Part shown: positions 7,545 through 18,613 of the stretch, in pieces | Position numbering within the stretch: position 1 is the first letter of the stretch | How the letters are laid out: every line of letters begins with the position of its first letter | Source of the DNA: a virus | Taxonomy: Duplodnaviria > Heunggongvirae > Uroviricota > Caudoviricetes | IMG/VR virus record: IMGVR_UViG_3300031911_000001 | Span: 37,881-101,880 of that record | Reading direction: 5' to 3' (one strand) | Length of the DNA: 64,000 nucleotides | The notes under the pieces: model-generated | Told to the model about the DNA's origin: nothing | Databases searched by the model: none | The model's input: the letters and a program-made list of their open reading frames with translations, nothing else | Made by a program: the position numbers and the translations under genes

Positions 7545-7627
7545 CTTAGAAATGGGGTGTGTTGGGTGCTGGAATACCCAAGGGATTGTAAATCCCCCGT
7601 CTCTGACATGTTGGTTCGAGTCCAACC
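7545..7627 (+). tRNA. tRNA-Tyr (GTA), type II
   Basis: Acceptor gggtgtg/cataccc+A+CCA, anticodon loop ttGTAaa, 12-nt variable arm, T-arm gttgg-ttcgagt-ccaac. Confidence 0.7.
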
Positions 7628-7680
7628 ATACCCACCAAGTATATTGCGTGTCGCTTTTCGATGTAGAAGCGACACGGAAG

Positions 7681-7756
7681 GCGCCTCTAGCTCAGTGAAT
7701 AGAGCAACGGACTTCTACCCCGTGGGTCGGGGGTTTGAATCCCTCGAGGCGCACCA
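7681..7756 (+). tRNA. tRNA-Arg (TCT)
   Basis: Acceptor gcgcctc/gaggcgc+A+CCA, D-arm tagctcagtgaatagagc, anticodon loop ctTCTac. Confidence 0.75.
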
Positions 7757-7766
7757 AGTTTAATGT

Positions 7767-7844
7767 CCGTTCGTAGCTCAGTCTGGTCAGAGTTCTCGCC
7801 CTGGAAGCGAGGGGTCCGTGGTTCGAATCCACGCGGGCGGACCA
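7767..7844 (+). tRNA. tRNA-Pro (TGG)
   Basis: Acceptor ccgttcg/cgggcgg+A+CCA, anticodon stem ctcgc/gcgag with loop ccTGGaa, T-loop ggttcgaatcc. Confidence 0.8.
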
Positions 7845-7852
7845 ATTTTTGT

Positions 7853-7934
7853 GGGTTAGTTGATATGTTGGGAAGTGATCGCCTCTCACCTATGAGAGGG
7901 GAAATCGGGAGTTCGAGTCTCCTCTGATCCACCA
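7853..7934 (+). tRNA. atypical tRNA (full cloverleaf but 8-nt or 6-nt anticodon loop cacctatg; anticodon unassignable, possibly CTA-containing)
   Basis: Acceptor gggttag/ctgatcc all paired, +A+CCA. T-arm gggag-ttcgagt-ctcct. Anticodon stem cctct/agagg encloses 8 nt. Confidence 0.4.
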
Positions 7935-8242
7935 AAAGATTCCATGAGCCTAGCCAGCATCGCCTGTGTCCATTGAAGCTCCGATGAGGGGTGGAGGACA
8001 TTCTCAACGGGCCAGGAAGCGTGAGGAAGATGGCTGCTCCCTCTTCTCCTTACACGGGAGTGACAACCGATACCATCGTGTAGTGTCTAGATGGTTAGAG
8101 TCCAAGTGGTGCACCGCTGAAGACCGACTCGGATTGCTGGGGTGTACACCACGTGACAACCTACGTTAGTGGATTGGGCCAGTCGATGGTGGCCTCGTGA
8201 TTTGAAGCTTTCGATCAGTACACGACCTCTGCTGATCACCCT

Positions 8243-8318
8243 GCTCGGGTAACTCAGTTGGTAGAGTAATCGCTTGATAAGCGATAAGTCGCTGGTTCGA
8301 ACCCAGCTCTGAGCACCA
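8243..8318 (+). tRNA. tRNA-Ile (GAT)
   Basis: Acceptor gctcggg/tctgagc+A+CCA, anticodon stem atcgc/gcgat with loop ttGATaa, T-arm gctgg-ttcgaac-ccagc. Confidence 0.8.
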
Positions 8319-8393
8319 AGATTTTGACTGACTGGGTACAAGGCCCAGCTAGGATTCGGTATCCTAGAGCCTCAAGAGGAAGCTACAGTCTTT

Positions 8394-8470
8394 GCCCCGG
8401 TGGTGGAATCGGTAGACACACCCGCCTCAGAAGCGGTTCGCTGAGAGTTCGAGTCTCTCCTAGGGCACCA
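8394..8470 (+). tRNA. tRNA with Leu anticodon CAG but short (5-nt) variable arm (class-I-like tRNA-Leu)
   Basis: Acceptor gccccgg/ctagggc, discriminator A, CCA. Leu-like D-arm ggtggtggaatcggtagacac. Anticodon loop ctCAGaa. Variable tcgct. T-arm gagag-ttcgagt-ctctc. 77 nt. Confidence 0.55.
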
Positions 8471-8520
8471 AGTTTTGATGAAGATCGTGGTTCAAAGCCA
8501 CGGCAATGACCATATCGAAA

Positions 8521-8708
8521 GTGCTGGTAGCTAGCTCAACTGGTAAGAGCGTCGTCGAATTAATGAGCCGATCCTCACCGGCAATAGCGATGGAGTAATG
8601 TCCGGCTGCAGAATGAGGAAGATTGAAGCAGGCGAGTGGAACGGATACATAACCATCTTGGTCTCATAAGCCAAGGATACCGGGTTCGACTCCCGGGCAC
8701 TGCAACCA
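8521..8708 (+). other. composite tRNA-like element: tRNA-like D-arm 5' part and canonical T-arm/CCA 3' part separated by about 110 nt; no consistent acceptor pairing
   Basis: 5' tagctcaactggtaagagc; 3' ccggg-ttcgact-cccgg...acca. Acceptor strands not complementary. Possibly a degenerate or interrupted tRNA. Confidence 0.3.
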
Positions 8709-8783
8709 AACAAGCCCCGGCGGCTTATCGTCCGGCGGGGCGGTCCCAGATTGGGTAGGTCTGGGTTATCAAAAGACCCCTGT

Positions 8784-8860
8784 GCCCTTGTAGTTTAACT
8801 GGTTTAGAACAGTGGACTTTCACTCCACCGATTCGGGTTCGATCCCCGATGAGGGCACCA
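8784..8860 (+). tRNA. tRNA-Glu (TTC)
   Basis: Acceptor gcccttg/tgagggc+A+CCA, anticodon stem gtgga/tccac with loop ctTTCac, T-arm tcggg-ttcgatc-cccga. Confidence 0.8.
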
Positions 8861-8928
8861 AGTTTTTAGAGGTTTTCCGGAAATGGGTAGCTCCCACTCC
8901 GGGATTGGGCTAGTACGCGACTGGCCTT

Positions 8929-9018
8929 GGACGAAGTGATGGAAATGGTAGACATAGGCCCTTTACCGGGCCGGAGGATGCAAAGCACCTCGTGTGGGTT
9001 CGAGCCCCACCTTCAATG
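8929..9018 (+). other. tRNA-like (type II-like) element with T-arm gtggg-ttcgagc-cccac but no encoded CCA and a 6-nt candidate anticodon loop
   Basis: ggccc-tttacc-gggcc hairpin and a long variable-like segment. Acceptor pairing not found. Confidence 0.25.
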
Positions 9019-9182
9019 TCCAGCAAGATTCTTGCAAGAAGAAAGCGCATAGACCCTGCAAATCGCCGCACACCGGCAGGGGTATTGACTATGCGGGGTA
9101 TGAGCCCCAAGAGTGCGGCTACAATTCCAAGGGCGGAACGTCATCAGACCGTCTAAAAAATTCGATGACCTTTGATAATTAT

Positions 9183-9258
9183 TCCCCGGAAGCAAACTAG
9201 GTGTGGGCAACGGACTGTTAATCCGCGAAGCGAGGTTCGAATCCTCGGCGGGGAGCCA
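9183..9258 (+). tRNA. tRNA-Asn (GTT), degenerate D-arm
   Basis: Acceptor tccccgg/gcgggga+G+CCA, anticodon arm cgga-ctGTTaa-tccg (as in E. coli tRNA-Asn), T-arm cgagg-ttcgaat-cctcg. D-stem not complementary. Confidence 0.6.
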
Positions 9259-9273
9259 TTATCAAAGAATTGT

Positions 9274-9349
9274 GTGTCGGTGGCTGAATGGTTTAGGCGG
9301 TGGATTGCAAATCCATCTCATGTAGGTTCGAGTCCTATCCGGCATTCCA
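9274..9349 (+). tRNA. tRNA-Cys (GCA)
   Basis: Acceptor gtgtcgg/ccggcat+T+CCA, anticodon stem gtgga/tccat with loop ttGCAaa, T-arm gtagg-ttcgagt-cctat. Confidence 0.7.
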
Positions 9350-9478
9350 AGTTTCTGTCAGTTGTCAAAAGGTGCCCTTGATCAGGGTGGCTGAGTAGGC
9401 AGCAAGGGTAGATTGATCATCTACTGATATACCGGATACGTCATCTGGGTAGTGGCGAATTATTTCAACGATTTATGT

Positions 9479-9555
9479 GCGTGTGTAGTTCCAATTGGTA
9501 GAACGCTATCCTTCCAAGTTAGATGTTGCAGGTTCGAATCCTGTCGCCCGCACCA
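9479..9555 (+). tRNA. tRNA-Gly (TCC)
   Basis: Acceptor gcgtgtg/cgcccgc+A+CCA, D-arm gttc-caattggta-gaac, anticodon loop ctTCCaa, T-arm gcagg-ttcgaat-cctgt. Confidence 0.75.
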
Positions 9556-9659
9556 GTTTTTATCAGCAGTCATCTGTCCGTGCTCTGGATGAGACGTCGA
9601 ATTCCTCTTGGTTCTCAACGAGAGGTTAGTAGTGCCAGAGCACGGGGTCAAATGATTGT

Positions 9660-9736
9660 TGGGGAGTCGCCTAGTTGGCCTAAGGCACGTGACTTTGACT
9701 CATGCATCGCTGGTTCGAATCCAGCCTCCTCTGCCA
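9660..9736 (+). tRNA. tRNA-Gln (TTG)
   Basis: Acceptor tggggag/ctcctct (U1 mismatch as in E. coli tRNA-Gln)+G+CCA, anticodon stem cgtga/tcatg with loop ctTTGac, T-arm gctgg-ttcgaat-ccagc. Confidence 0.75.
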
Positions 9737-9833
9737 GTTTATGTCAAGGTAGTTCAAACAGCAAGAACACCGGCTCGTCAATACCAGCCGGAAATGTGGT
9801 CGACTGGCAGCACACCCTTGACACCAGATATAT

Positions 9834-9914
9834 CCCGCGGTAGCTCAGTCGGTAGAGCGGTCCATGATGTACAGCATGGATGCGTCGGTGGTTCAATTCC
9901 ATCCCAAGGGGCCA
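9834..9914 (+). tRNA. atypical tRNA (canonical D- and T-arms; anticodon stem ccatg/catgg enclosing 8-nt loop atgtacag; GTA/TAC-containing)
   Basis: D-arm tagctcagtcggtagagc, T-arm ggtgg-ttcaatt-ccatc, acceptor 3' ccaaggg+G+CCA with 5/7 pairing. Confidence 0.45.
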
Positions 9915-10074
9915 GATTAAGTGTGTTTGTTCAATGTGTCCCAAAACCTTATCAGAGCGAAATTGCCGTCCCCTGCAAAGGGCGCGCTGACTGTACCTAC
10001 CTTCTTAGGTTCTTTAGGAGCCCTATCGCTGGCCCAGATAGGCAAACATAGAAGGACATTGAACAAACACTCGT

Positions 10075-10545
10075 ATCAGTGACTTGATCACTGTGAAAAG
10101 CGAAGTGGATAGATGGAACACGGGGGTTCAACTCCCCCCACCTCCACCAAAAGAGCCCTCTGCCCGAGCGGTTAGGTCGAAAGACTATAGCGTCGGATCG
10201 GCAGAGACAATAACCCGGCAAAGGCTGCTAAGCGGGTTCTTTTGATGGGGGTGACCCGGCTATCGACTCCGTCATTGAAACAGAGCTTACGAGTAGAGGA
10301 AAGCATATCACAGCCTCTTAAAAATCGGTATGCAAAAGAGTAAGTGCAAACGACGCTCAAATGCGTATTGCGGCCTAAAAACCTGCAACGCTGAGGGGTA
10401 AAGCCCTTATCACCAAAACCAATCCTTGAGCCCGGCAATTGCAGGGTGACTTTGAGAACCATCAGAAATGATGGGGGTCAGGGACTGGGCCGTATAAAGT
10501 AGCGGTCCACCAATTTAAGTAGAGCACAGGCAAAACACTGCTCTA
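10075..10545 (+). ncRNA. ssrA: tmRNA (ssrA), apparently circularly permuted two-piece form: acceptor piece about 10075-10148 (T-arm gggg-ttcaact-cccc, 3' cacctcc-A-CCA) precedes coding piece 10246 to about 10545 (5' GGGGGUGACCCGGCUAUCGACUCCG, tag ORF 10346-10378)
   Basis: 3' acceptor cacctcc (10138-10144) pairs perfectly with downstream gggggtg (10246-10252). Coding piece carries GCAAACGACGCUCAAAUGCGUAUUGCGGCCUAA, giving the tag peptide ANDAQMRIAA-stop followed by CCUGC as in E. coli ssrA. Terminal hairpin agtagagca...tgctctact at about 10510-10540. No T-arm or matching acceptor downstream of the tag, arguing against a one-piece gene. Confidence 0.7.
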
Positions 10546-10571
10546 CTAAGTAACCATGAAGGAACAAAATC

Positions 10572-11015
10572 ATGGTTACCATAGAAGAATACATCGAGAA
10601 ACCAATCGCTGAACGTCAGTCCCATCTGAGGTTGGATGAACCCTGTATGGAGCGTAGCTCGTCTGGTAAGAGCACCTCGACGTTCTGCAAGGGTTTGCTG
10701 GCTCACATTTTTGATACGACTATCCCAAAGGGTATGTCAATTCATGTTTGCCATGCTTGCAACAATGAAATCTGTTCAAATCCGGATCATCTCTATTGGG
10801 GTACGGCAAAAGAAAACAGGCTGGATCAGGTCAAAGACCGCAGCATTTGGGAACGTAATGTTCATAAAAACGGACTCGAGACTGCGATAGAAGTTCAACG
10901 TGCTGCATCAAGTAAAGGCGGTAGAGCCAATGCAGGCAAACCGAAGTCTCCTGAGCATCGGGCCAAACTGGCTCTAGCAATGATGGGGAAACGGAACAGA
11001 TCAAAGGGTATCTAG
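10572..11015 (+). CDS. HNH homing endonuclease
   Basis: 147 aa with HVCHACNNEICSNPDHLYWGTAKEN (HNH motif). AAGGA RBS. 3' end overlaps tRNA-Trp by 10 nt. Nucleotides about 10634-10660 inside the ORF resemble a tRNA D-arm (gtagctcgtctggtaagagcacc). Confidence 0.7.
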   Translation: MVTIEEYIEKPIAERQSHLRLDEPCMERSSSGKSTSTFCKGLLAHIFDTTIPKGMSIHVCHACNNEICSNPDHLYWGTAKENRLDQVKDRSIWERNVHKNGLETAIEVQRAASSKGGRANAGKPKSPEHRAKLALAMMGKRNRSKGI

Positions 11016-11081
11016 CTCAACTGGCAGAGCAGGCGCCTCCAAAGCGTCAGGTTGTAGGTTCAACTCCTACGGTGCCCGCCA
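11006..11081 (+). tRNA. tRNA-Trp (CCA)
   Basis: Acceptor gggtatc/ggtgccc+G+CCA, D-arm gctc-aactggca-gagc, anticodon stem ggcgc/gcgtc with loop ctCCAaa, T-arm gtagg-ttcaact-cctac. Confidence 0.8.
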
Positions 11082-11239
11082 AAATACAGGTCAGAGCCAA
11101 TATCAACCAGATACATGCTCTGACCAATAAAGTGAATAAACTCACTTTTAAGCCGGTTAATCACCAGTTTATTAACTGAATTCGTTGATGTTTGAGGCTT
11201 TACAATAGTGACGTCAAACAAACATAAACGGAGTTCATT

Positions 11240-11776
11240 ATGACAGACAAGGTAAGCGGAATCCTCCACGTGCGGCCGATCAACATCACAGAAGGCGCGT
11301 ACTCGAACTATGGCGGCATTTCGCTGGCCTACTCGGTGAAGGAAAGTGGTGATGTGAAGGTAAGTCTCGCGATCTGCTCGCACCAAGATCGGTTCAACCG
11401 TAAGCGCGGACGTCAGATCGCTCTGGGACGCCTGAACAGCGAACGTGCTCAAGAGCTCGTGTCGACGTTCGATTCTTCGGCCCTCGAATTCATGGCAGCT
11501 GAATACTTCGGCGTCAAGATGAAGATCGAACCGAAGGTGGGTAGCACCGGTGAGTTCTACGTGGAACGTGAGAAGTTCCCACTGAGCGCAGTGCTCCTGT
11601 TGATGGTGCGCCCGATGGTCCTGGACCTGCTCCATCGTGAAGCAGCTGACCACGCTGTTCAGTTCCTGGAAGAATACACGATCGAGGACGTTGCGATCGT
11701 CAGCTACCGGAATGGTCTGGGTTGGCACTTCGGTGCTAAGACCAATGAAGTCGGAATCGGCGTCCGCGTGGTCTAA
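11240..11776 (+). CDS. hypothetical protein (178 aa) within tRNA island
   Basis: ORF with RBS aaacggag. The antisense 361-aa ORF is judged spurious. Confidence 0.6.
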   Translation: MTDKVSGILHVRPINITEGAYSNYGGISLAYSVKESGDVKVSLAICSHQDRFNRKRGRQIALGRLNSERAQELVSTFDSSALEFMAAEYFGVKMKIEPKVGSTGEFYVEREKFPLSAVLLLMVRPMVLDLLHREAADHAVQFLEEYTIEDVAIVSYRNGLGWHFGAKTNEVGIGVRVV

Positions 11777-11876
11777 AGGTTTTGCCAGTTTATCAAAACT
11801 GGCTGGTGGAAGTTGAATCGAGTAAAACCGGTTCAGCCCTAGTTTTCTCCCAAGGTTTTCACAAAACGTTGGATCT

Positions 11877-11954
11877 GCCCCTGTAGCTCTTAACTGGTAG
11901 AGCGACTGCCTTGTAAGCAGAGGGTTGGCGGTTCGAGTCCGTCCGGGGGCACCA
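11877..11954 (+). tRNA. tRNA-Thr (TGT)
   Basis: Acceptor gcccctg/cgggggc+A+CCA, D-arm tagctcttaactggtagagc, anticodon loop ctTGTaa, T-arm ggcgg-ttcgagt-ccgtc. Confidence 0.8.
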
Positions 11955-11977
11955 GATTTTTGATAAAGGAAAAGAAG

Positions 11978-12118
11978 ATGGTTGCAAAGCGTTTTGAGGT
12001 TCGTCACAACAATGACATCTATCACGTGTTTGACACACGTCTCTACATCGTGATTGATGCATACCGTGACAAGCAATCGGCTGACGAGCATGTCGATCAG
12101 CTGAACGGCAAGAAGTAA
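11978..12118 (+). CDS. small hypothetical protein (46 aa)
   Basis: MVAKRFEVRHNNDIYHVFDTRLYIVIDAYRDKQSADEHVDQLNGKK. RBS aaaggaaaag. Confidence 0.45.
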   Translation: MVAKRFEVRHNNDIYHVFDTRLYIVIDAYRDKQSADEHVDQLNGKK

Positions 12119-12249
12119 GAAGGCGGAGGCTTCAATGCCTCCCATTAGGCCAGGATGTTTGTAAGGCGTTATTGTGGGTGCCTCCCACTAGCTGTCGGTG
12201 GAAAGGGACACGGCAACCCGGTTCCCCTGATTAAGCATCCTGGCCTAAT

Positions 12250-12342
12250 GGGCATCTTAGCCGAGCTGGCCTAGCGGCAACGGTCTTGAAAACCGAAGGC
12301 TCCGAAAGGGGTGTGTGAGTTCGAGTCTCACGGTGCCCGCCA
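12250..12342 (+). tRNA. tRNA-Ser (TGA), type II
   Basis: Acceptor gggcatc/ggtgccc+G+CCA, anticodon stem cggt/accg with loop ctTGAaa, long variable arm, T-arm gtgag-ttcgagt-ctcac. 93 nt. Confidence 0.8.
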
Positions 12343-12529
12343 AATTTGTGTGAGATTGAAATGTGAAGGAAAACGGTTAAGTCTGCAGGCGCTTGCCGTT
12401 AGTAGGTCACAAAGTAGTTGCTCAGGCTACCTGCACTTTTGATGTTGTCGCGAGTACGCCAACGGGTCAATGCAAACAGTACCGAACTCAAAAGATGCCG
12501 CCGGCGTCGGAACCGGCCACAAACCACAT

Positions 12530-12609
12530 CTCTCGTTAACTCAGTGGAATAAAAGAGTACTGCGCTACGAACGCAGGAGTCGGAGGTTCGAATCCTTCAC
12601 GAGGGACCA
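12530..12609 (+). tRNA. tRNA-Arg (ACG)
   Basis: Acceptor ctctcgt/acgaggg+A+CCA, anticodon stem ctgcg/cgcag with loop ctACGaa, T-arm ggagg-ttcgaat-ccttc. Confidence 0.75.
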
Positions 12610-12675
12610 TTATTTCTGCCTTGGGTTCGAATCCCACGGCGCGAGGGCTGAAGTGGACAGCAGGCAGAAATAATG

Positions 12676-12751
12676 GCCTAGATAGCTCAGACGGTAGAGC
12701 GGCAGCTTGAAAAGCTGTGCGTCACTGGTTCGATCCCAGTTCCGGGCACCA
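12676..12751 (+). tRNA. tRNA-Phe (GAA)
   Basis: Acceptor gcctaga/tccgggc+A+CCA, D-arm tagctcagacggtagagc, anticodon loop ttGAAaa, T-arm actgg-ttcgatc-ccagt. Confidence 0.8.
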
Positions 12752-12939
12752 AGATTGTTCATTGACGACTGGGTAATGTCGTGGATGTTCATGTGAAAGT
12801 CGTGTCCAGGAGGCTCTTGAGAAGATGGCACCGCCCTCCAGCAATGGAGTCCACCGGGAGTGGATGTAAAGAGATTAGAGTCGTGCGGTTGGTGGTTCGC
12901 CATCAACTGTCAAGGATCGGTGGTGACATCGGTCCACCC

Positions 12940-13015
12940 GGGCTCGTAGCTCAGCCGGGAGAGCAACTGCTTTGCAAGCAGAAGGTTGCAGGTTCGATTC
13001 CTGTCGGGTCCACCA
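12940..13015 (+). tRNA. tRNA-Ala (TGC)
   Basis: Acceptor gggctcg/cgggtcc+A+CCA, D-arm tagctcagccgggagagc, anticodon loop ttTGCaa, T-arm gcagg-ttcgattc-ctgt. Confidence 0.75.
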
Positions 13016-13537
13016 GTTTTGTTGATCGTCATGGGCAAGTCGTGACACGTGGGGAACGTAGACCATACACCGATGATCAACGCATTTTATTCGCCGAAGC
13101 TGTAGGTTCAGAGCCGTGATGCAGTACTCCACTCTAATGAGGGAGCGTTTGTGAGGTCAATACTCACCGGCAAATGGTTTGGAGAGTAGTTAGGATGTCG
13201 GGGTGAAATCCCATCATTTAAAGAGTCGTATGGCATTACCCTGATCCCCCACTGCAAGGATCGGAATGTTGTGCCCGGGGAAAGAACAAGCACAGTTCAT
13301 GTGGTTATCGACTATTCGTGCTCTAGAGCTCAGGGCATGAGGTTGAACGTTCAAGGGCGAAGCCTTGGACTAAATCGGCGGGTGTAATGACGGAAAGACC
13401 CAAAGAGATGCCACGTTGAGACCCGTAGATCGTTTGGCTGTCGAAAGCACACTACCTACTCCCAATTCAACATTAGACCCGCCCACGTTATGGGTAGAAG
13501 ATCGGTCGTTTATTAGGGCCTACATGGATCGTCCTCC

Positions 13538-13609
13538 GGACCGCATGCACCGGAGTAAGGCCTCTTTCGAGAGGCCGATGGGTGGGTTCGATTCCCATCA
13601 GGTCCACCA
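13538..13609 (+). other. tRNA-like element with canonical T-arm and CCA end (gtggg-ttcgatt-cccat, caggtcc-A-CCA) but 6-nt anticodon-like loop and degenerate D-arm
   Basis: ggcctc-tttcga-gaggcc hairpin. Acceptor pairing 5/7. Confidence 0.3.
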
Positions 13610-13617
13610 GTTTCAAT

Positions 13618-13693
13618 GCGTGCTTAGCTCAGTTGGTAGAGCAGTTGAGTGCCACTCAACAGGTCGCAGGTTCGAACCCTGTAGCCCGCACCA
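13618..13693 (+). tRNA. tRNA-Gly (GCC)
   Basis: Acceptor gcgtgct/agcccgc+A+CCA, D-arm tagctcagttggtagagc, anticodon stem gttga/tcaac with loop gtGCCac, T-arm gcagg-ttcgaac-cctgt. Confidence 0.8.
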
Positions 13694-13743
13694 GTTTCAA
13701 TGATTGATGACTCAATGCAGTGTATAATGACTGCTTTTGGGAC

Positions 13744-13998
13744 ATGAACATGAAACCTATTCGCCTCATCTTCAACATCTACCGGACGCTTCGGAAGAAG
13801 CCAATCGTCCAGTCGGTTGAAATCTACATGAAGTCCGGCAACGTGATTGTCATCGACAATGTGATCGGAGATATCACTTACACGTATCAGGGCAACCAGA
13901 TCACCTATCTGAAGGTCAAGCAGGCCCCGGGACACAATGTAGCGATTGAATCCATCGACTTGAGCCAGATCGAGGGCTTCAAGAGCAAAGCATACTAG
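13744..13998 (+). CDS. small hypothetical protein (84 aa)
   Basis: ORF track 13720..13998 begins at GTG. ATG at 13744 follows a TATAAT box at 13723-13728. Confidence 0.45.
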   Translation: MNMKPIRLIFNIYRTLRKKPIVQSVEIYMKSGNVIVIDNVIGDITYTYQGNQITYLKVKQAPGHNVAIESIDLSQIEGFKSKAY

Positions 13999-14008
13999 AA
14001 AGAGCATT

Positions 14009-14344
14009 ATGATCGACGACAACTTCCGCAAAGCATTCCTGACCGGCACCGATGACACCGGGCGTCACATCGTGACTTCGGCTCGCACAGGTCGTACCTA
14101 CTTCGTAGAGGCGATCATCACCGAGAAGACCCCTTCGTGGGGTTCGGTGGACCCGGCAACCGGGAACCTGATGCACAAGAAGGGCGACGGGAAACATCTG
14201 GGTGGCGTGAAGCCGGCTCAGTCCATGATCACTCTCGAGAACGGTTTCGATAAGGTCCATGAACTGGGCCACGGAACGTCACCGTATGCGAAGATCGAAG
14301 AACTCGACGCTCAGTACCCCGACAAGGAAGCTGTAGCGGCGTAA
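14009..14344 (+). CDS. hypothetical protein (111 aa)
   Basis: ORF in tRNA island with plausible RBS. Confidence 0.5.
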   Translation: MIDDNFRKAFLTGTDDTGRHIVTSARTGRTYFVEAIITEKTPSWGSVDPATGNLMHKKGDGKHLGGVKPAQSMITLENGFDKVHELGHGTSPYAKIEELDAQYPDKEAVAA

Positions 14345-14439
14345 GGAATTGAAGTATCGTCGGGGTTGTTCCGGCTTCCGCTTCGATGGGCAGTTTTCAT
14401 CCGGTTCTGCGCCTTGTAAAAACCGGCTCCTATTCTGTG

Positions 14440-14516
14440 TGGACCGTCGCCAAGCTGGTTAAGGCCGGGGATTGTGATTCCCCTATGCGTGGGTTCGAAT
14501 CCCATCGGTCCAACCA
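14440..14516 (+). tRNA. tRNA-His (GTG)
   Basis: Acceptor tggaccg/cggtcca (perfect)+A+CCA, preceded by G(-1). Anticodon stem gggga/tcccc with loop ttGTGat. T-arm gtggg-ttcgaat-cccat (close to E. coli tRNA-His). Confidence 0.8.
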
Positions 14517-14526
14517 CACAATTTCG

Positions 14527-14604
14527 GGGTCGCTAGCTCAATCGGTTTAGAGCACCGGGCTTTTAACCCGGGGGTTCTGAGTTCGAGTCTCAGGCGGCCC
14601 ACCA
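14527..14604 (+). tRNA. tRNA-Lys (TTT)
   Basis: Acceptor gggtcgc/gcggccc+A+CCA, anticodon stem ccggg/cccgg with loop ctTTTaa, T-arm ctgag-ttcgagt-ctcag. Confidence 0.8.
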
Positions 14605-14612
14605 AGGTTTTC

Positions 14613-14690
14613 GGATTGCTAACTCAACTGGTTTAGAGTACCCGCCTCTTAAGCGGGAGGTTCTGTGTTCGACTCACAGGCAATCCACCA
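14613..14690 (+). tRNA. tRNA-Lys (CTT)
   Basis: Acceptor ggattgc/gcaatcc (perfect)+A+CCA, anticodon stem cccgc/gcggg with loop ctCTTaa, T-arm gtgtg-ttcgact-cacag. Confidence 0.8.
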
Positions 14691-14702
14691 CTACAGGAGA
14701 AG

Positions 14703-14861
14703 ATGATGAGCAGAACAGTCAAAGGCGGTAAGGGACCGGGATTTGAATACTGGGGCAAGCGTCCCTTCTCGGGTGTCAGTCCCAGCAAAGAGAACAAGCA
14801 GATCACCCACAAGATCGAACGCCAGCGCAACAAGAAGCTGGACAAAGCCGAGAAAGACTAA
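14703..14861 (+). CDS. small basic protein (52 aa)
   Basis: MMSRTVKGGKGPGFEYWGKRPFSGVSPSKENKQITHKIERQRNKKLDKAEKD. Strong RBS caggagaag. Confidence 0.5.
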   Translation: MMSRTVKGGKGPGFEYWGKRPFSGVSPSKENKQITHKIERQRNKKLDKAEKD

Positions 14862-14959
14862 GTAGATACGTTACGCAGGTATTGCTCGACTGAGGGTGAA
14901 AACCCCTCCCGGGACTGCGCCCGCTATAACCGGAGATGAGTACCGGTTTACAACATTTT

Positions 14960-15035
14960 GGGACGTTAGCTCAGCTGGTAGAGCAGCGGATTGTCTATCC
15001 GCATGTCAGGGGTTCGAATCCCCTACGTCCCGCCA
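14960..15035 (+). tRNA. tRNA-Asp (GTC)
   Basis: Acceptor gggacgt/acgtccc (perfect)+G+CCA, anticodon stem gcgga/tccgc with loop ttGTCta, T-arm cagggg-ttcgaat-cccct. Confidence 0.85.
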
Positions 15036-15089
15036 GTTTTTATTGACCACATGGGGCTAGAGTTTTGAAAGCCGAAGTGTCGTCAATAC

Positions 15090-15164
15090 AGCCGATTAGC
15101 TCAGAGGCAGAGCGGCTCCCTTACAAGGAGAAGGTCGACGTTTCAAAATCGTCATTGGCTACCA
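15090..15164 (+). tRNA. tRNA-Val (TAC), unusual T-loop
   Basis: Acceptor agccgat/attggct+A+CCA, D-arm tagctcagaggcagagc, anticodon loop ctTACaa, T-arm gacg-tttcaaaat-cgtc (non-canonical). Confidence 0.65.
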
Positions 15165-15170
15165 TACAGA

Positions 15171-15237
15171 GGTGCTGTAGCTCAGTTGGTTAGAGCGCAG
15201 GATTCATAACCCTGAGGCCGGTGGATCATTCCCACCT
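15171..15237 (+). tRNA. tRNA-Met/Ile2 (CAT), elongator-type, unusual T-loop
   Basis: Acceptor ggtgctg/tagcacc+A+CCA, D-arm tagctcagttggttagagc, anticodon loop ttCATaa, T-arm ggtgg-atcattc-ccacc. Confidence 0.65.
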
Positions 15238-15251
15238 AGCACCACCAGAAC

Positions 15252-15277
15252 AAGACCCTTCGGGGTCTTTTCTTTTG
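15252..15277 (+). terminator. rho-independent terminator closing the tRNA array
   Basis: aagaccc-ttcg-gggtctt followed by ttcttttg. Confidence 0.7.
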
Positions 15278-15297
15278 CCCTTTCTTTCATCGAAGTG

Positions 15298-15356
15298 TTG
15301 ACGGTCGTCATGAACCTCCCTACAATAGGACATCAACAACCACTTGGAGAAGTGAA
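15298..15356 (+). promoter_or_regulatory. conserved early promoter + leader, copy 1 (TTGACG-N17-TACAAT, leader CATCAACAACCACTTGGAGAAGTGAAATG)
   Basis: Seen in sequence. Shares the core CCACTTGGAGAAGTGAAATG with 8 other sites. Confidence 0.7.
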
Positions 15357-15563
15357 ATGCGCAAATTCAAAATGACTATCCTCTGTTCTGTCCAGGTCGA
15401 GGTTCTTGCAGAACTGACCGAAGACGGCACCTTCGTCAGACATGTGGTTGGCGTCAAACATCCGACTGCCGAAGAGGTCATGGCGGCACTAGAAACCCAT
15501 CCCGGTGTCGGTGGCTTAGAAGAGCTCGACTCCCACTACGCCAACGCAAAGGATTTCCAATGA
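15357..15563 (+). CDS. small early protein (68 aa)
   Basis: ATG directly follows the conserved leader. Confidence 0.65.
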   Translation: MRKFKMTILCSVQVEVLAELTEDGTFVRHVVGVKHPTAEEVMAALETHPGVGGLEELDSHYANAKDFQ

Positions 15564-15760
15564 AAACCATGTACTTGGTCCTTGACGGCCTGACCCCGGA
15601 AGACTTCATCCTTCAGCACGTCATACAGACATACGAATTGGATGAGGATCAGGCCAAGGCCATCATCCAAGGACTGAAGGACAACGGGAGTTACCAAGAC
15701 CTTTACAATAGGGCGGTCGAGGTAATCGACGGATTTAAAAAGATGATGGAGGTAAAGTGA
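15560..15760 (+). CDS. small early protein (66 aa)
   Basis: ATGA overlap with previous gene. Confidence 0.6.
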   Translation: MKTMYLVLDGLTPEDFILQHVIQTYELDEDQAKAIIQGLKDNGSYQDLYNRAVEVIDGFKKMMEVK

Positions 15761-15969
15761 TGAGCAAGACCAAACTTCGCCGAGGAATCGGCCACATGGG
15801 CCGTGTCTTCCAATACGGCACCGCAGTCGGCCCGAATGGTGCATCTCTTAGCATCCGGGCTTCTGTAAAGATGCAGGAGGATAACGCCCGAAAGCTGAAC
15901 AAGCTGCCAGAGTTCAAACGTGCTGCAAAGAAGCGCCAACGTCGTGATGACTTCCGGATGGCATCATGA
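15757..15969 (+). CDS. small basic early protein (70 aa)
   Basis: GTGATG overlap with previous gene. Lys/Arg-rich C-terminus. Confidence 0.6.
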   Translation: MMSKTKLRRGIGHMGRVFQYGTAVGPNGASLSIRASVKMQEDNARKLNKLPEFKRAAKKRQRRDDFRMAS

Positions 15970-16442
15970 ACTCCTGTGAAGAACTAGTCCGTGGCATGGA
16001 AGCCGTGGCTGGACCGGGTAATGTGCCCATCTCGTATCGCATCATGGCCCAGTACGGCCGTGAGTACAAGATCAAGACCAACCACCTGACCGGCAAAGGC
16101 CGCAAGCAGGAATGCTACCGGAACTCCGAGAACCTCGTGACGTTCCAGAGCCTCGATGACCGATACGTCTACGTCGAAGGCTACGCCATGAAGCCGGGGT
16201 TGATTCCCTTGTCCCATGCGTGGGTCGTAGACCTGAACGATGGCAAGGCAATCGATCCTACGTGGCCTGAGGGCGATGGCATCTACTTCGGGGTGCCATT
16301 CGACAACGAGTTCGTCAACGACTTCTCGATCAGTGTCGGCTGCTACGGAATCTTCGAGAACCTCTACAAGTTGCACCGTGCTCGCAACATCAAGCGGCTC
16401 GAAGACGTCATCAAATACCTCGAGTCAGGTATCGTCAAGTAA
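15966..16442 (+). CDS. hypothetical protein (158 aa)
   Basis: ATGA overlap with previous gene. Confidence 0.65.
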   Translation: MNSCEELVRGMEAVAGPGNVPISYRIMAQYGREYKIKTNHLTGKGRKQECYRNSENLVTFQSLDDRYVYVEGYAMKPGLIPLSHAWVVDLNDGKAIDPTWPEGDGIYFGVPFDNEFVNDFSISVGCYGIFENLYKLHRARNIKRLEDVIKYLESGIVK

Positions 16443-16489
16443 GTAAACCACGGGTCATTGAAGGCCCGTCATTTACCATACAGGTTCAA

Positions 16490-16579
16490 GGGCGGTTGGC
16501 AGAGAGGCCGATTGCAGGGGGTTGCTAACCCCTAGGCTCCGCAAGGGGTCCACAGGTTCAAATCCTGTACCGCCCGCCA
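16490..16579 (+). tRNA. tRNA-Ser (GCT), type II
   Basis: Acceptor gggcggt/accgccc (perfect)+G+CCA, anticodon stem ggggg/cccct with loop ttGCTaa, long variable arm, T-arm cacagg-ttcaaat-cctgt. 90 nt. Lies outside the main array. Confidence 0.8.
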
Positions 16580-16595
16580 ACTCTACGGAACCTGT

Positions 16596-17018
16596 ATGTC
16601 AGCACTCTACAATCACATCCGAGCCGAATGGGTCGCTGCCCGACAAGGCAGAATCGAGCTCAAGGCGACTGCTCTCGGCACCATCATTTCTGATCTGGAC
16701 CGCATTGCCAAGGACGAGCAACGTGAGGTCCGAGACTCAGACGTCTTCAATCTGGCACTGAAGTACATCAAGGGCATCAACGAGACCTTGGATGCTCTGC
16801 TGAAGAACGCACCGTCGGACGTGCGCATCCCCCGAATTCAGTTCGAGAAGACGATCTACCAAGAGCTCCTGCCGTCTCAATTGACGCCAGACGAGATCAA
16901 GAAGATCATCCAGCAAAACCACCTGACCGGTGTCAAGGACATCATGACGTACTTCAAGCACCACTACGTTGGCCGGTACGATGGAAAGGTACTCTCAGAA
17001 ATCGCCAGGACAGCATGA
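16596..17018 (+). CDS. hypothetical protein (140 aa)
   Basis: ORF. Confidence 0.6.
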   Translation: MSALYNHIRAEWVAARQGRIELKATALGTIISDLDRIAKDEQREVRDSDVFNLALKYIKGINETLDALLKNAPSDVRIPRIQFEKTIYQELLPSQLTPDEIKKIIQQNHLTGVKDIMTYFKHHYVGRYDGKVLSEIARTA

Positions 17019-17829: not shown

Positions 17830-18465
17830 ATGAAACTAATCAACAAACTGGTGTTCGCTGCTATTATGCTTGTCACTTGCACTGCCGTGACTACACAGCA
17901 ACTGCAGCAGACCGAGAAGATCATTGAGACGGAGCAGTCTACGATTGCTGTCGTTCGTGACAAGATTGACAAGTCCATCACCGGTGACAAGCTGGTGTTC
18001 GGCAGTGTGGTTCACCTGAAGAAGCAGGTCGGCGTAGACAACATCCGGATCATCCAGCGCAAGGGTGCGTACAACTGTGCCCGGGGTGAGTTCATCATCA
18101 AGGAAGTTACCGCCTTTGACAAGTCCGGTAACGAGGTCAAGGATGAAAACATCAAGACCGATGTGATCATGACGCCGAACATCGACACCGTCAAGCGAGA
18201 GTTCAAGTTCATGTGTGCCGATCCTACACCGGCTCCTGTAGTAGAACCACCTGCACCGCCGCCTCAGATCATCACGGTTCCGATCCCTGTGATCATTGAA
18301 GCCGTCGAGGAAGCACCGAAGAAGGCCCGTCCGAAGCCAGCAGTGAAGAAGCCTGAACCGGCACCGAAGCCAATCGCCAAAGCCCCTGAGGCACCCAAGG
18401 TCAAGGCTCCTGTTGTTCAAAAACAACCACTCAACGCCGGACAACGTACTGATCTGGTAGACTAA
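17830..18465 (+). CDS. secreted/membrane protein with Pro/Ala/Lys-rich repetitive C-terminus
   Basis: N-terminal hydrophobic segment. C-terminal PTPAPVVEPPAPPP...KKPEPAPKPIAKAPEAPKVKAP low-complexity repeats. Confidence 0.6.
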   Translation: MKLINKLVFAAIMLVTCTAVTTQQLQQTEKIIETEQSTIAVVRDKIDKSITGDKLVFGSVVHLKKQVGVDNIRIIQRKGAYNCARGEFIIKEVTAFDKSGNEVKDENIKTDVIMTPNIDTVKREFKFMCADPTPAPVVEPPAPPPQIITVPIPVIIEAVEEAPKKARPKPAVKKPEPAPKPIAKAPEAPKVKAPVVQKQPLNAGQRTDLVD

Positions 18466-18472
18466 TGCACAT

Positions 18473-18553
18473 GGGGGAGTGACGGGAATCCTTGGTATAC
18501 CTCGGGGCCTCAAAAGCTCTGGTCTGTGGGTTCAAGTCCCACCTCCCCTACCA
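18473..18553 (+). tRNA. tRNA with Leu anticodon CAA, Leu-like D-arm, discriminator A, but short (5-nt) variable arm (second class-I-like tRNA-Leu)
   Basis: Acceptor gggggag/ctcccct+A+CCA, anticodon stem ggggc/gctct with loop ctCAAaa, variable ggtct, T-arm gtggg-ttcaagt-cccac. Confidence 0.5.
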
Positions 18554-18560
18554 AGATATG

Positions 18561-18588
18561 AAATAGACGCTCCGGCGTCTATTTCGTT
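18561..18588 (+). terminator. rho-independent terminator
   Basis: aaatagacgc-tccg-gcgtctattt followed by cgtt. Confidence 0.55.
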
Positions 18589-18613
18589 GATGAATCGGTG
18601 TTAAAGTCTGCTC

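Follow-up and report, generated by a model that had tools for sequence, protein, structure and literature searches.

Two short-armed leucine tRNA genes of an uncultured T4-type phage are probably functional type I tRNA-Leu

Introduction

In textbooks and most reviews, tRNA-Leu is a class II tRNA everywhere outside mitochondria. A preliminary description of a 64,000-nt stretch of viral DNA, here called the window, pointed to two tRNA genes with leucine anticodons that appeared to be of class I, with the anticodon stem and the T stem just 5 nt apart. It offered three explanations: the genes are truncated pseudo-tRNAs, they are charged by leucyl-tRNA synthetase (LeuRS) without the long arm, or they carry a different identity while reading CUG and UUG codons. 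What, then, are these genes? We consider it likely that both are functional type I tRNA-Leu genes, descended from long-arm tRNA-Leu and leucylated by the LeuRS of the host. In our analysis, charging without the long arm is the best supported of the three options.

The phage and its tRNA array

Replication and structural proteins of T4 type are encoded in the window, namely gp32, a UvsW-like helicase, topoisomerase II subunits, ribonucleotide reductase and a gp19-like tail tube protein, and the source phage is an uncultured T4-superfamily myovirus of ~168 kb. Megablast of the tRNA array against 50,697 phage records returned isolated tRNA matches only and no close relative of the window. Among cultured phages the nearest is Ralstonia phage RSP15, with ~25% identity over one large protein.

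Between 7555 and 18553 ARAGORN called 26 tRNAs together with a permuted tmRNA, every one of them on the + strand, and Rfam at the gathering threshold found no tRNA in the rest of the window. The main array (7555-16579, + strand; ARAGORN and Rfam) holds 24 tRNAs and the tmRNA. The only tRNAs with leucine anticodons called by ARAGORN in the window are the two considered here, one with anticodon CAG inside the main array and one with anticodon CAA beyond it. No normal long-arm tRNA-Leu was detected in the main array by ARAGORN or over the whole window by Rfam. The long arms of tRNA-Tyr (83 nt) and of both tRNA-Ser (93 and 90 nt) are kept (ARAGORN). In our annotation the CAG and CAA genes stay tRNA-Leu, and with them counted as such the phage tRNA set covers all 20 amino acids.

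Relatives were sought with the topoisomerase subunit encoded just upstream of the array, and were reached via a large protein collection and the encoding contigs. Three loci (L007, L012 and L014), with topoisomerases of 60-64% amino acid identity to that of the window, have the same gene order, i.e. topoisomerase, Tyr-Arg-Pro-Ile-Leu and onwards, then YqeY and NUDIX, and their tRNA arrays are syntenic with that of the window. The same search of IMG/VR and JGI metagenomes yielded only relatives of 26-29% identity, with no tRNAs nearby. Two loci of intermediate identity (L016 and L017, 36-40%) carry no tRNAs beside the topoisomerase, so the arm loss cannot be dated from them.

Two other features of the array region were observed. 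The tmRNA, at 10057-10469 (+ strand; Rfam RF04321, 61.9 bits), is of the permuted, two-piece kind and lies within the tRNA array; its tag peptide, ANDAQMRIAA, is identical to that of the tmRNA in L007 (L007:14188-14595). Directly after the array, a YqeY/GatB-like ORF (16596-17018, + strand) takes the same place as in L007 and L012. In the records of RSP15 and T5, a 'tRNA amidotransferase' gene adjoins the tRNA genes and, judged by annotation only, may match this ORF.

Structure of the two leucine tRNA genes

The CAG gene (8394-8470, + strand) is 77 nt long and was called as tRNA-Leu(cag) over this interval by ARAGORN; Infernal aligned 8394-8467 to Rfam RF00005 at 52.1 bits (gathering score 29). 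Its variable region is UCGCU, 5 nt between the anticodon and T stems, with U48 (Infernal). The acceptor stem, GCCCCGG/CUAGGGC, contains a C5-A68 mismatch and a G6-U67 pair, the anticodon loop is CUCAGAA, the discriminator is A73 and CCA is encoded. The D arm, UG-GUGG-AAUCGGUAGA-CAC, has the layout of tRNA-Leu, with U8 G9, a 3-bp stem, G13-A22 and the loop AAUCGGUAG. The mismatches C5-A68 and C27-U43 are both kept in L007. Position 37 is A, where G37 is usual in CUN-reading tRNA-Leu; the loop of the RSP15 Leu(UAG) gene, CUUAGAA, already has A37, which makes this a trait of the wider lineage.

The CAA gene (18473-18553, + strand) was called as tRNA-Leu(caa) at 18475-18553 by ARAGORN, whereas Infernal starts at 18473. 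This latter start, which the preliminary description had used, gives a better acceptor stem of 7 bp, GGGGGAG/CUCCCCU, with G1-U72. Infernal aligned 18473-18550 to RF00005 at 33.7 bits (gathering score 29). The variable region is GGUCU, again 5 nt between the anticodon and T stems and with U48 (Infernal), the anticodon loop is CUCAAAA, and A73 and an encoded CCA are present. The D arm is irregular, with an extra G, a C11-C24 mismatch and a 3-nt loop insertion relative to the orthologues, and was handled by Infernal as a local insertion. The first observation on the two genes is confirmed.

Both genes fold as a cloverleaf in which the acceptor stem has 7 bp, the anticodon and T stems 5 bp each and the anticodon loop 7 nt, and both have the 4-5-nt variable region, the leucine anticodon (NAG or YAA) and the compensatory changes by which we recognize type I tRNA-Leu. 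The variable stem-loop of at least 10 nt that marks canonical class II is absent, with 5 nt in either gene. The preliminary description had been read by hand and had proposed folding by program as a check. ARAGORN gave both genes as tRNA-Leu without a long variable arm, in agreement with Infernal on the class I architecture and the 5-nt variable region, and both Rfam scores lie above threshold. Its reading of the variable regions (tcgct and ggtct), of A73 and of the anticodon loops (ctCAGaa and ctCAAaa) was the same as ours.

Conservation and origin

The relatives carry leucine tRNAs of the same kind: UAG (77 nt) and CAA (78 nt) in L007, CAG (77 nt) and CAA (78 nt) in L012, and CAA and AAG (both 77 nt) in L014. 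No normal class II tRNA-Leu was found in these three loci. The anticodons vary among orthologues, always inside the leucine boxes. As a separate observation, the AAG gene of L014 (L014:12623-12699) is a type I tRNA-Leu with A34, unusual for a bacterial-type tRNA other than tRNA-Arg(ACG); nine further cases occur among the IMG/VR matches listed (see below).

The CAG gene differs from its UAG orthologue in L007 (L007:12633-12709) at 10 of 77 positions. Six of these differences belong to three stem pairs in which both partners have changed, the remainder fall at unpaired positions, and pairing is lost nowhere. Between the CAA gene and its L007 orthologue (L007:16845-16922) there are 11 differences, eight of them in four doubly changed stem pairs, all compensated. 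The L012 orthologue (L012:16961-17038) is separated from the CAA gene by four substitutions and the 3-nt insertion. Every stem substitution between the leucine orthologues compared is compensated, and the identity of the leucine genes between phages (0.73-0.92) can be set beside medians of 0.75-0.79 for the other tRNAs. Such conservation with compensated changes indicates selection on a working cloverleaf and contradicts decay.

A long-arm ancestry is suggested by RSP15, which carries two tRNA-Leu genes of the ordinary class II type, 85-86 nt long. Both window genes can be aligned with these along their whole length apart from the arm, where 13 nt have given way to 5. The CAA gene and the Leu(CAA) gene of RSP15 have in common G1-U72 and the T arm GUGGGUUCRAGUCCCAC, which implies common descent. 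We hypothesize that the extra arm of ancestral long-arm tRNA-Leu genes was reduced to 5 nt, and that the elements recognized by a LeuRS of the E. coli type remained: U8-A14, the Levitt pair A15-U48, a Leu-type D loop with G18G19, the T loop and discriminator A73. Canonical class II tRNA-Leu (RSP15, 85-86 nt; phage T5, 85 nt) matches the window genes in the D arm, T arm, A73 and style of the anticodon loop, and differs in its variable stem-loop of 13-15 nt.

Leucine identity and codon use

A covariance model, R1, was built from 105 type I Leu sequences of IMG/VR, none of them from the clade of the window. The CAG gene scored 74.2 bits with R1, in line with the 73-78 bits of other class I Leu genes; the highest score of a non-Leu tRNA in the window was 60.9 bits, 13 lower. 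R1 also gives 68.7 bits to the tRNA-Lys(UUU) of RSP15 (L004:19875-19948). Since the model is not fully isotype-specific, score differences were used in place of ranks. R1 minus Rfam is +22.1 bits for the CAG gene and +19.6 bits for the CAA gene, as opposed to -0.7 to -33 bits for every other intact window tRNA compared.

The leucine determinants of the E. coli type (A73, U8-A14, A15-U48, and G18G19 with U55C56) are present by sequence in both genes. In phage loci, 49% of class II Leu tRNAs have the Leu D-arm motif, as against 7% or fewer of the tRNAs of most other isotypes. The anticodons are sense leucine anticodons and the tRNA bodies carry leucine determinants, so nothing in the two genes marks a suppressor or recoding tRNA.

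Codon usage, the second check that had been proposed, was counted for the phage over 76 ORFs (49 kb). CUG is the commonest leucine codon, at 35% of leucine codons and 31 per 1000 codons, and UUG makes up 14%; together they account for 49% of the phage leucine codons. In the topoisomerase gene, homologues have leucine at 0.48 of CUG columns and 0.56 of UUG columns, as often as at CUC columns (0.52), which indicates that the phage uses both codons with their standard meaning. Because CUG and UUG are half of its leucine codons, a non-leucine identity would damage half of its leucine positions.

Distribution of type I tRNA-Leu

The preliminary description held the long variable arm to be universal in bacterial tRNA-Leu. 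This does not stand: type I tRNA-Leu has been reported from Streptomyces (PMC6614811), and we found it on Actinomycetota chromosomes and in many phages. IMG/VR was scanned with a pattern that fixed only A14 A15 U16, G18 G19, a leucine anticodon with A37 A38, class I spacing and the T loop. It gave at least 134 matches on at least 120 viral contigs. Several features that the pattern did not demand were counted in the 134 matches listed: A73 is present in all 134, U48 in 133 and an encoded CCA in 100, and all seven acceptor pairs are formed in 120 and the five anticodon-stem pairs in 121. Among the 105 distinct sequences, pairing holds in 98.9% of cells and double changes are seen in 19 of 20 pairs; covariation reaches a score of 1.06, compared with 0.24 after shuffling and 0.14-0.19 after sliding.

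In the loci of the matches listed, ARAGORN called 171 Leu tRNAs of at most 80 nt and 42 longer ones; CAG is a rare anticodon among the short ones (2 of 171). One recurrent type I sequence matched 40 GenBank phage records, whose hosts include Vibrio, Klebsiella, Providencia, Proteus, Escherichia, Cronobacter, Aeromonas, Xanthomonas and Enterobacter, and the annotated features under these matches are tRNA-Leu with one exception. Class I Leu tRNAs of 77 nt, annotated as tRNA-Leu, are present in Escherichia phage 4MG (NC_022968) and in Providencia phage PR1 (NC_041913). The genes of 4MG, PR1 and the 40-record list are like the window genes in their 77-nt layout with CCA, the Leu-type D arm with U8-G9, U48, A73 and a C32/A37/A38 loop, and those of 4MG and PR1 score 73-77 bits with R1, as does the CAG gene. 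They are at best 73-87% identical to the window genes, belong to unrelated phage families and have anticodons UAG or UAA.

The same pattern run over bacterial contigs, one genome per species, gave at least 119 matches; among those listed, 110 have seven acceptor pairs and 116 both A73 and U48. The listed matches are mostly single tRNA genes, mostly of Actinomycetota (Mycobacterium, Nocardia, Rhodococcus, Corynebacterium, Bifidobacterium and Arthrobacter), with anticodon UAA or CAA. The same conserved ORFs lie beside the gene in six genera of different orders, which makes the type I Leu gene of Actinomycetota a core gene and not prophage cargo. The loci concerned (L141-L260, e.g. L153, L161, L191, L177, L143 and L164) hold single-copy chromosomal class I tRNA-Leu(UAA/CAA) genes with A73 and U48. 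The spread of type I tRNA-Leu in Actinomycetota is much wider than the single Streptomyces case that we found in the literature.

The bacterial matches are of a U8-A9/C13-A22 subtype, and the window genes of a U8-G9/G13-A22 subtype. The latter looks like the body of a class II tRNA-Leu minus its arm. The U8-A9 subtype resembles tRNA-Lys bodies (A14 A15 U16, U48), and this likeness hints at a second origin.

Full-text literature searches found no description of short-arm tRNA-Leu in phages. By our scans, type I tRNA-Leu is common in phage tRNA arrays, including those of cultured coliphages, and is a syntenic chromosomal gene across Actinomycetota.

Charging by leucyl-tRNA synthetase

From these observations we infer that both genes are expressed, processed and leucylated. 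The CAG gene would be transcribed with the array and the CAA gene behind the ORF at 17830-18465, and both transcripts would be processed to the encoded CCA end. Leucylation would then fall to the host LeuRS, as an enzyme that needs neither the anticodon nor the long arm, and the charged tRNAs would decode CUG and UUG.

In E. coli tRNALeu, the anticodon and the long arm are dispensable and arm-less variants are active; leucine identity there needs A73, A15-U48, G18G19, A20a and the D/T-loop contacts of the tertiary core (Giegé and Eriani 2023, PMC9976931). Engineered arm-less E. coli tRNALeu, as summarized in that review, is charged and edited by E. coli LeuRS if A73 and the D/T-loop interactions are intact (Larkin et al. 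2002 via PMC9976931); these were artificial constructs, assayed in vitro.

A natural precedent is the type I tRNALeu(CAA) of Streptomyces coelicolor, which is leucylated by the LeuRS of that bacterium (Fan et al. 2019, NAR 47:6369, PMC6614811). It shares with the window genes a 5-nt variable loop and the U8-A14 determinant. Unlike them, it is a cellular gene beside type II isoacceptors, where the window genes are phage-borne and the only Leu tRNAs found. Its variable loop is ACAGC (C48) and its LeuRS does not use A73, in contrast to U48, A73 and the U8-G9/G13-A22 D arm of the window genes. When tried in vitro, E. coli LeuRS accepted the type II tRNA of S. coelicolor but failed on its type I tRNALeu(CAA) (PMC6614811), so type I architecture is not accepted automatically. 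The same study terms type I tRNALeu rare in bacteria and does not mention phages.

Animal mitochondrial tRNALeu(UUR) is likewise of type I and has its identity via A73 and A14 without a long arm (PMC9976931). In contrast to the window genes it is organellar, A/U-rich and loose in structure, is served by its own LeuRS and has no sequence relationship to them; it is not charged by S. coelicolor LeuRS (PMC6614811). Two questions are raised by these comparisons: whether a LeuRS of the E. coli type charges natural type I tRNALeu, for which phage-host pairs exist (4MG/E. coli K-12), and why the arm was lost in Leu but not in Ser or Tyr.

Alternative explanations

Evasion of host immunity would leave both genes as leucine tRNAs and give another reason for their form. 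The arm would have been lost since host toxins or nucleases recognize class II tRNAs by it, and the short-arm copy would sustain leucine decoding once the host tRNA-Leu is disabled. The specificity of the loss is in keeping with this: in the phage loci of the matches listed, arms are kept in Ser (almost all 84-97 nt) and Tyr (mostly 81-93 nt), and in all four phages of the clade the whole Leu set is replaced. The anticodon loops have C32, A37 and A38; a Shigella phage Leu(UAG) tRNA is reported to depart from the host loop in this way, with a link to anticodon-nuclease resistance (PMC12482277; PMC10264068). Nucleotidyltransferase toxins of the AbiEii/MenT family reportedly have a likely preference for long-arm class II tRNAs, and MenT1 targets a tRNA-Leu (bioRxiv 10.64898/2026.01.19.700257).

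This case is circumstantial throughout. Both Leu types are present in 33 of the 120 phage loci of the matches listed, and the type I Leu tRNAs of Actinomycetota are housekeeping genes. We know of no defence system that tells tRNA-Leu apart by its arm. Neutral loss is a sufficient explanation, given that LeuRS does not need the arm, and we regard evasion as unlikely. Similarly doubtful is the broader proposal that phages of Proteobacteria have repeatedly swapped long-arm for short-arm Leu tRNAs, in this clade for the whole Leu set, and that the short-arm copies evade defences which detect class II tRNAs through the arm (MenT/AbiEii-type nucleotidyltransferases or tRNA nucleases) while still being charged by LeuRS of the E. 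coli type. If true, it would overturn the in-vitro view that such LeuRS serve type II tRNALeu only.

A different possibility concerns the CAA copy alone, which might be decaying after its move from the array, with a disrupted D loop and poor or no charging. That it lies outside the main array, as the preliminary description had noted, is correct: it is 1.9 kb and four ORFs past the last array tRNA. In L007 and L012 the orthologue is inside the array, before or after tRNA-Ala. The window keeps the Phe-Ala spacer (12800-12890, + strand), which corresponds to the spacer preceding Leu(CAA) in L012 (L012:16880-16950), and lacks the tRNA there; the gene was hence relocated from this ancestral place to 18473. 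Its Rfam score of 33.7 bits is the second lowest among the window tRNAs, with only Asn (30.6) lower. The 3-nt insertion stands before G18G19 and displaces them in the D loop, which makes this copy the weaker of the two genes. With R1 it reaches 53.3 bits, less than its orthologues (64.5 and 59.9); this score falls among those of non-Leu tRNAs and does not surpass those of the Lys, Ile and Thr tRNAs of the window.

Several features nevertheless speak for a CAA gene in use. All its stems are intact, A73 and CCA are retained, and apart from the insertion only the four substitutions separate it from L012, though the proteins of the two phages are ~64% identical. It is the only UUG reader that ARAGORN called in the window and so the only one the phage is seen to have. 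Directly 3' of the tRNA, a 10-bp hairpin, AAAUAGACGC-UCCG-GCGUCUAUUU with a short U-poor tail (18561-18589, + strand), was read from the sequence. It may end a transcript carrying the ORF at 17830-18465 and the CAA tRNA, and thus suggests a defined transcript end; a consensus terminator scan did not report it because its T tail is too weak. Decay of the CAA copy accordingly appears improbable, and a functional type I tRNA-Leu remains our preferred reading for this gene as well.

That both genes are non-functional truncated pseudo-tRNAs is very improbable. The minimum-free-energy (MFE) folds of both are non-cloverleaf and no more stable than shuffles (z = -0.02 and -1.0), and the arrays hold several degenerate tRNA-like wrecks. 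MFE folding of one tRNA sequence often misses the cloverleaf, however, so the result carries little weight. Against decay of the pair, the stems are intact and U8, A14, G18G19, U33, the T loop and CCA are present in both genes. They are kept across phages at 60-64% protein identity, where every stem change is compensated and each anticodon belongs to a leucine box; their conservation matches that of the other tRNAs, and their scores lie above the Rfam threshold.

Equally hard to credit is the recoding reading, in which the tRNAs read CUG and UUG with another amino acid or are charged by a phage-encoded synthetase. The class I architecture is that of most non-Leu tRNAs, and our synthetase check covered the 64-kb window, with ~104 kb of the contig lying outside. 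Within the window no ORF (largest at most 697 aa) showed a synthetase domain, and no determinant of another synthetase is visible in the tRNAs: A35 with G36 or A36 suits no anticodon-dependent synthetase, partial matches aside, and the absence of G3-U70 (3-70 is C-G and G-C) speaks against alanine identity. The D arm, U48 and A73 are the leucine set, and the codons to be read are half of the phage leucine codons and lie at leucine-conserved columns.

Degenerate tRNA-like elements in the array

One element of the array resembles a class II tRNA-Leu. At 8930-9018 (+ strand), ARAGORN reported a 'tRNA-???' and Rfam gave 19.6 bits, below threshold. The element combines a D arm of Leu type and a long variable arm with an anticodon loop of 6 nt (UUUACC) and two mismatches in the acceptor stem; its discriminator is G and it lacks CCA. 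A copy of ~80% identity is present in L014 (L014:12424-12513, loop CUAAUA), with the common end CCTTCAATG, and none was found in L007 and L012. The element could represent what is left of a long-arm tRNA-Leu displaced by the type I genes, or else a conserved RNA that does not decode.

Further tRNA-like sequences were observed in the same region, all on the + strand. One, at 9834-9911, appeared with 38 bits when the array was searched permissively with Rfam, but is not in the gathering list of the whole window and was not called by ARAGORN; it has a 6-bp anticodon stem, an 8-nt loop (AUGUACAG), five of seven acceptor pairs and a GCCA end. At 8512-8708, tRNA pieces lie ~90 nt apart, with a sequence like a 5' half, GCTGGTAGCTAGCTCAACTGGTAAGAGCG, followed by a CAU anticodon arm, a T arm and ACCA. 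The partial Rfam match is 21.9 bits, an intact tRNA-Met(CAU) occupies the equivalent place in L007, and the pieces would represent either an interrupted gene or a wreck. Finally, 7853-7931 and 13580-13612 are degenerate remnants with CCACCA ends, the former a weak Rfam match of 22.6 bits and the latter a lone T arm with the 3' acceptor strand.
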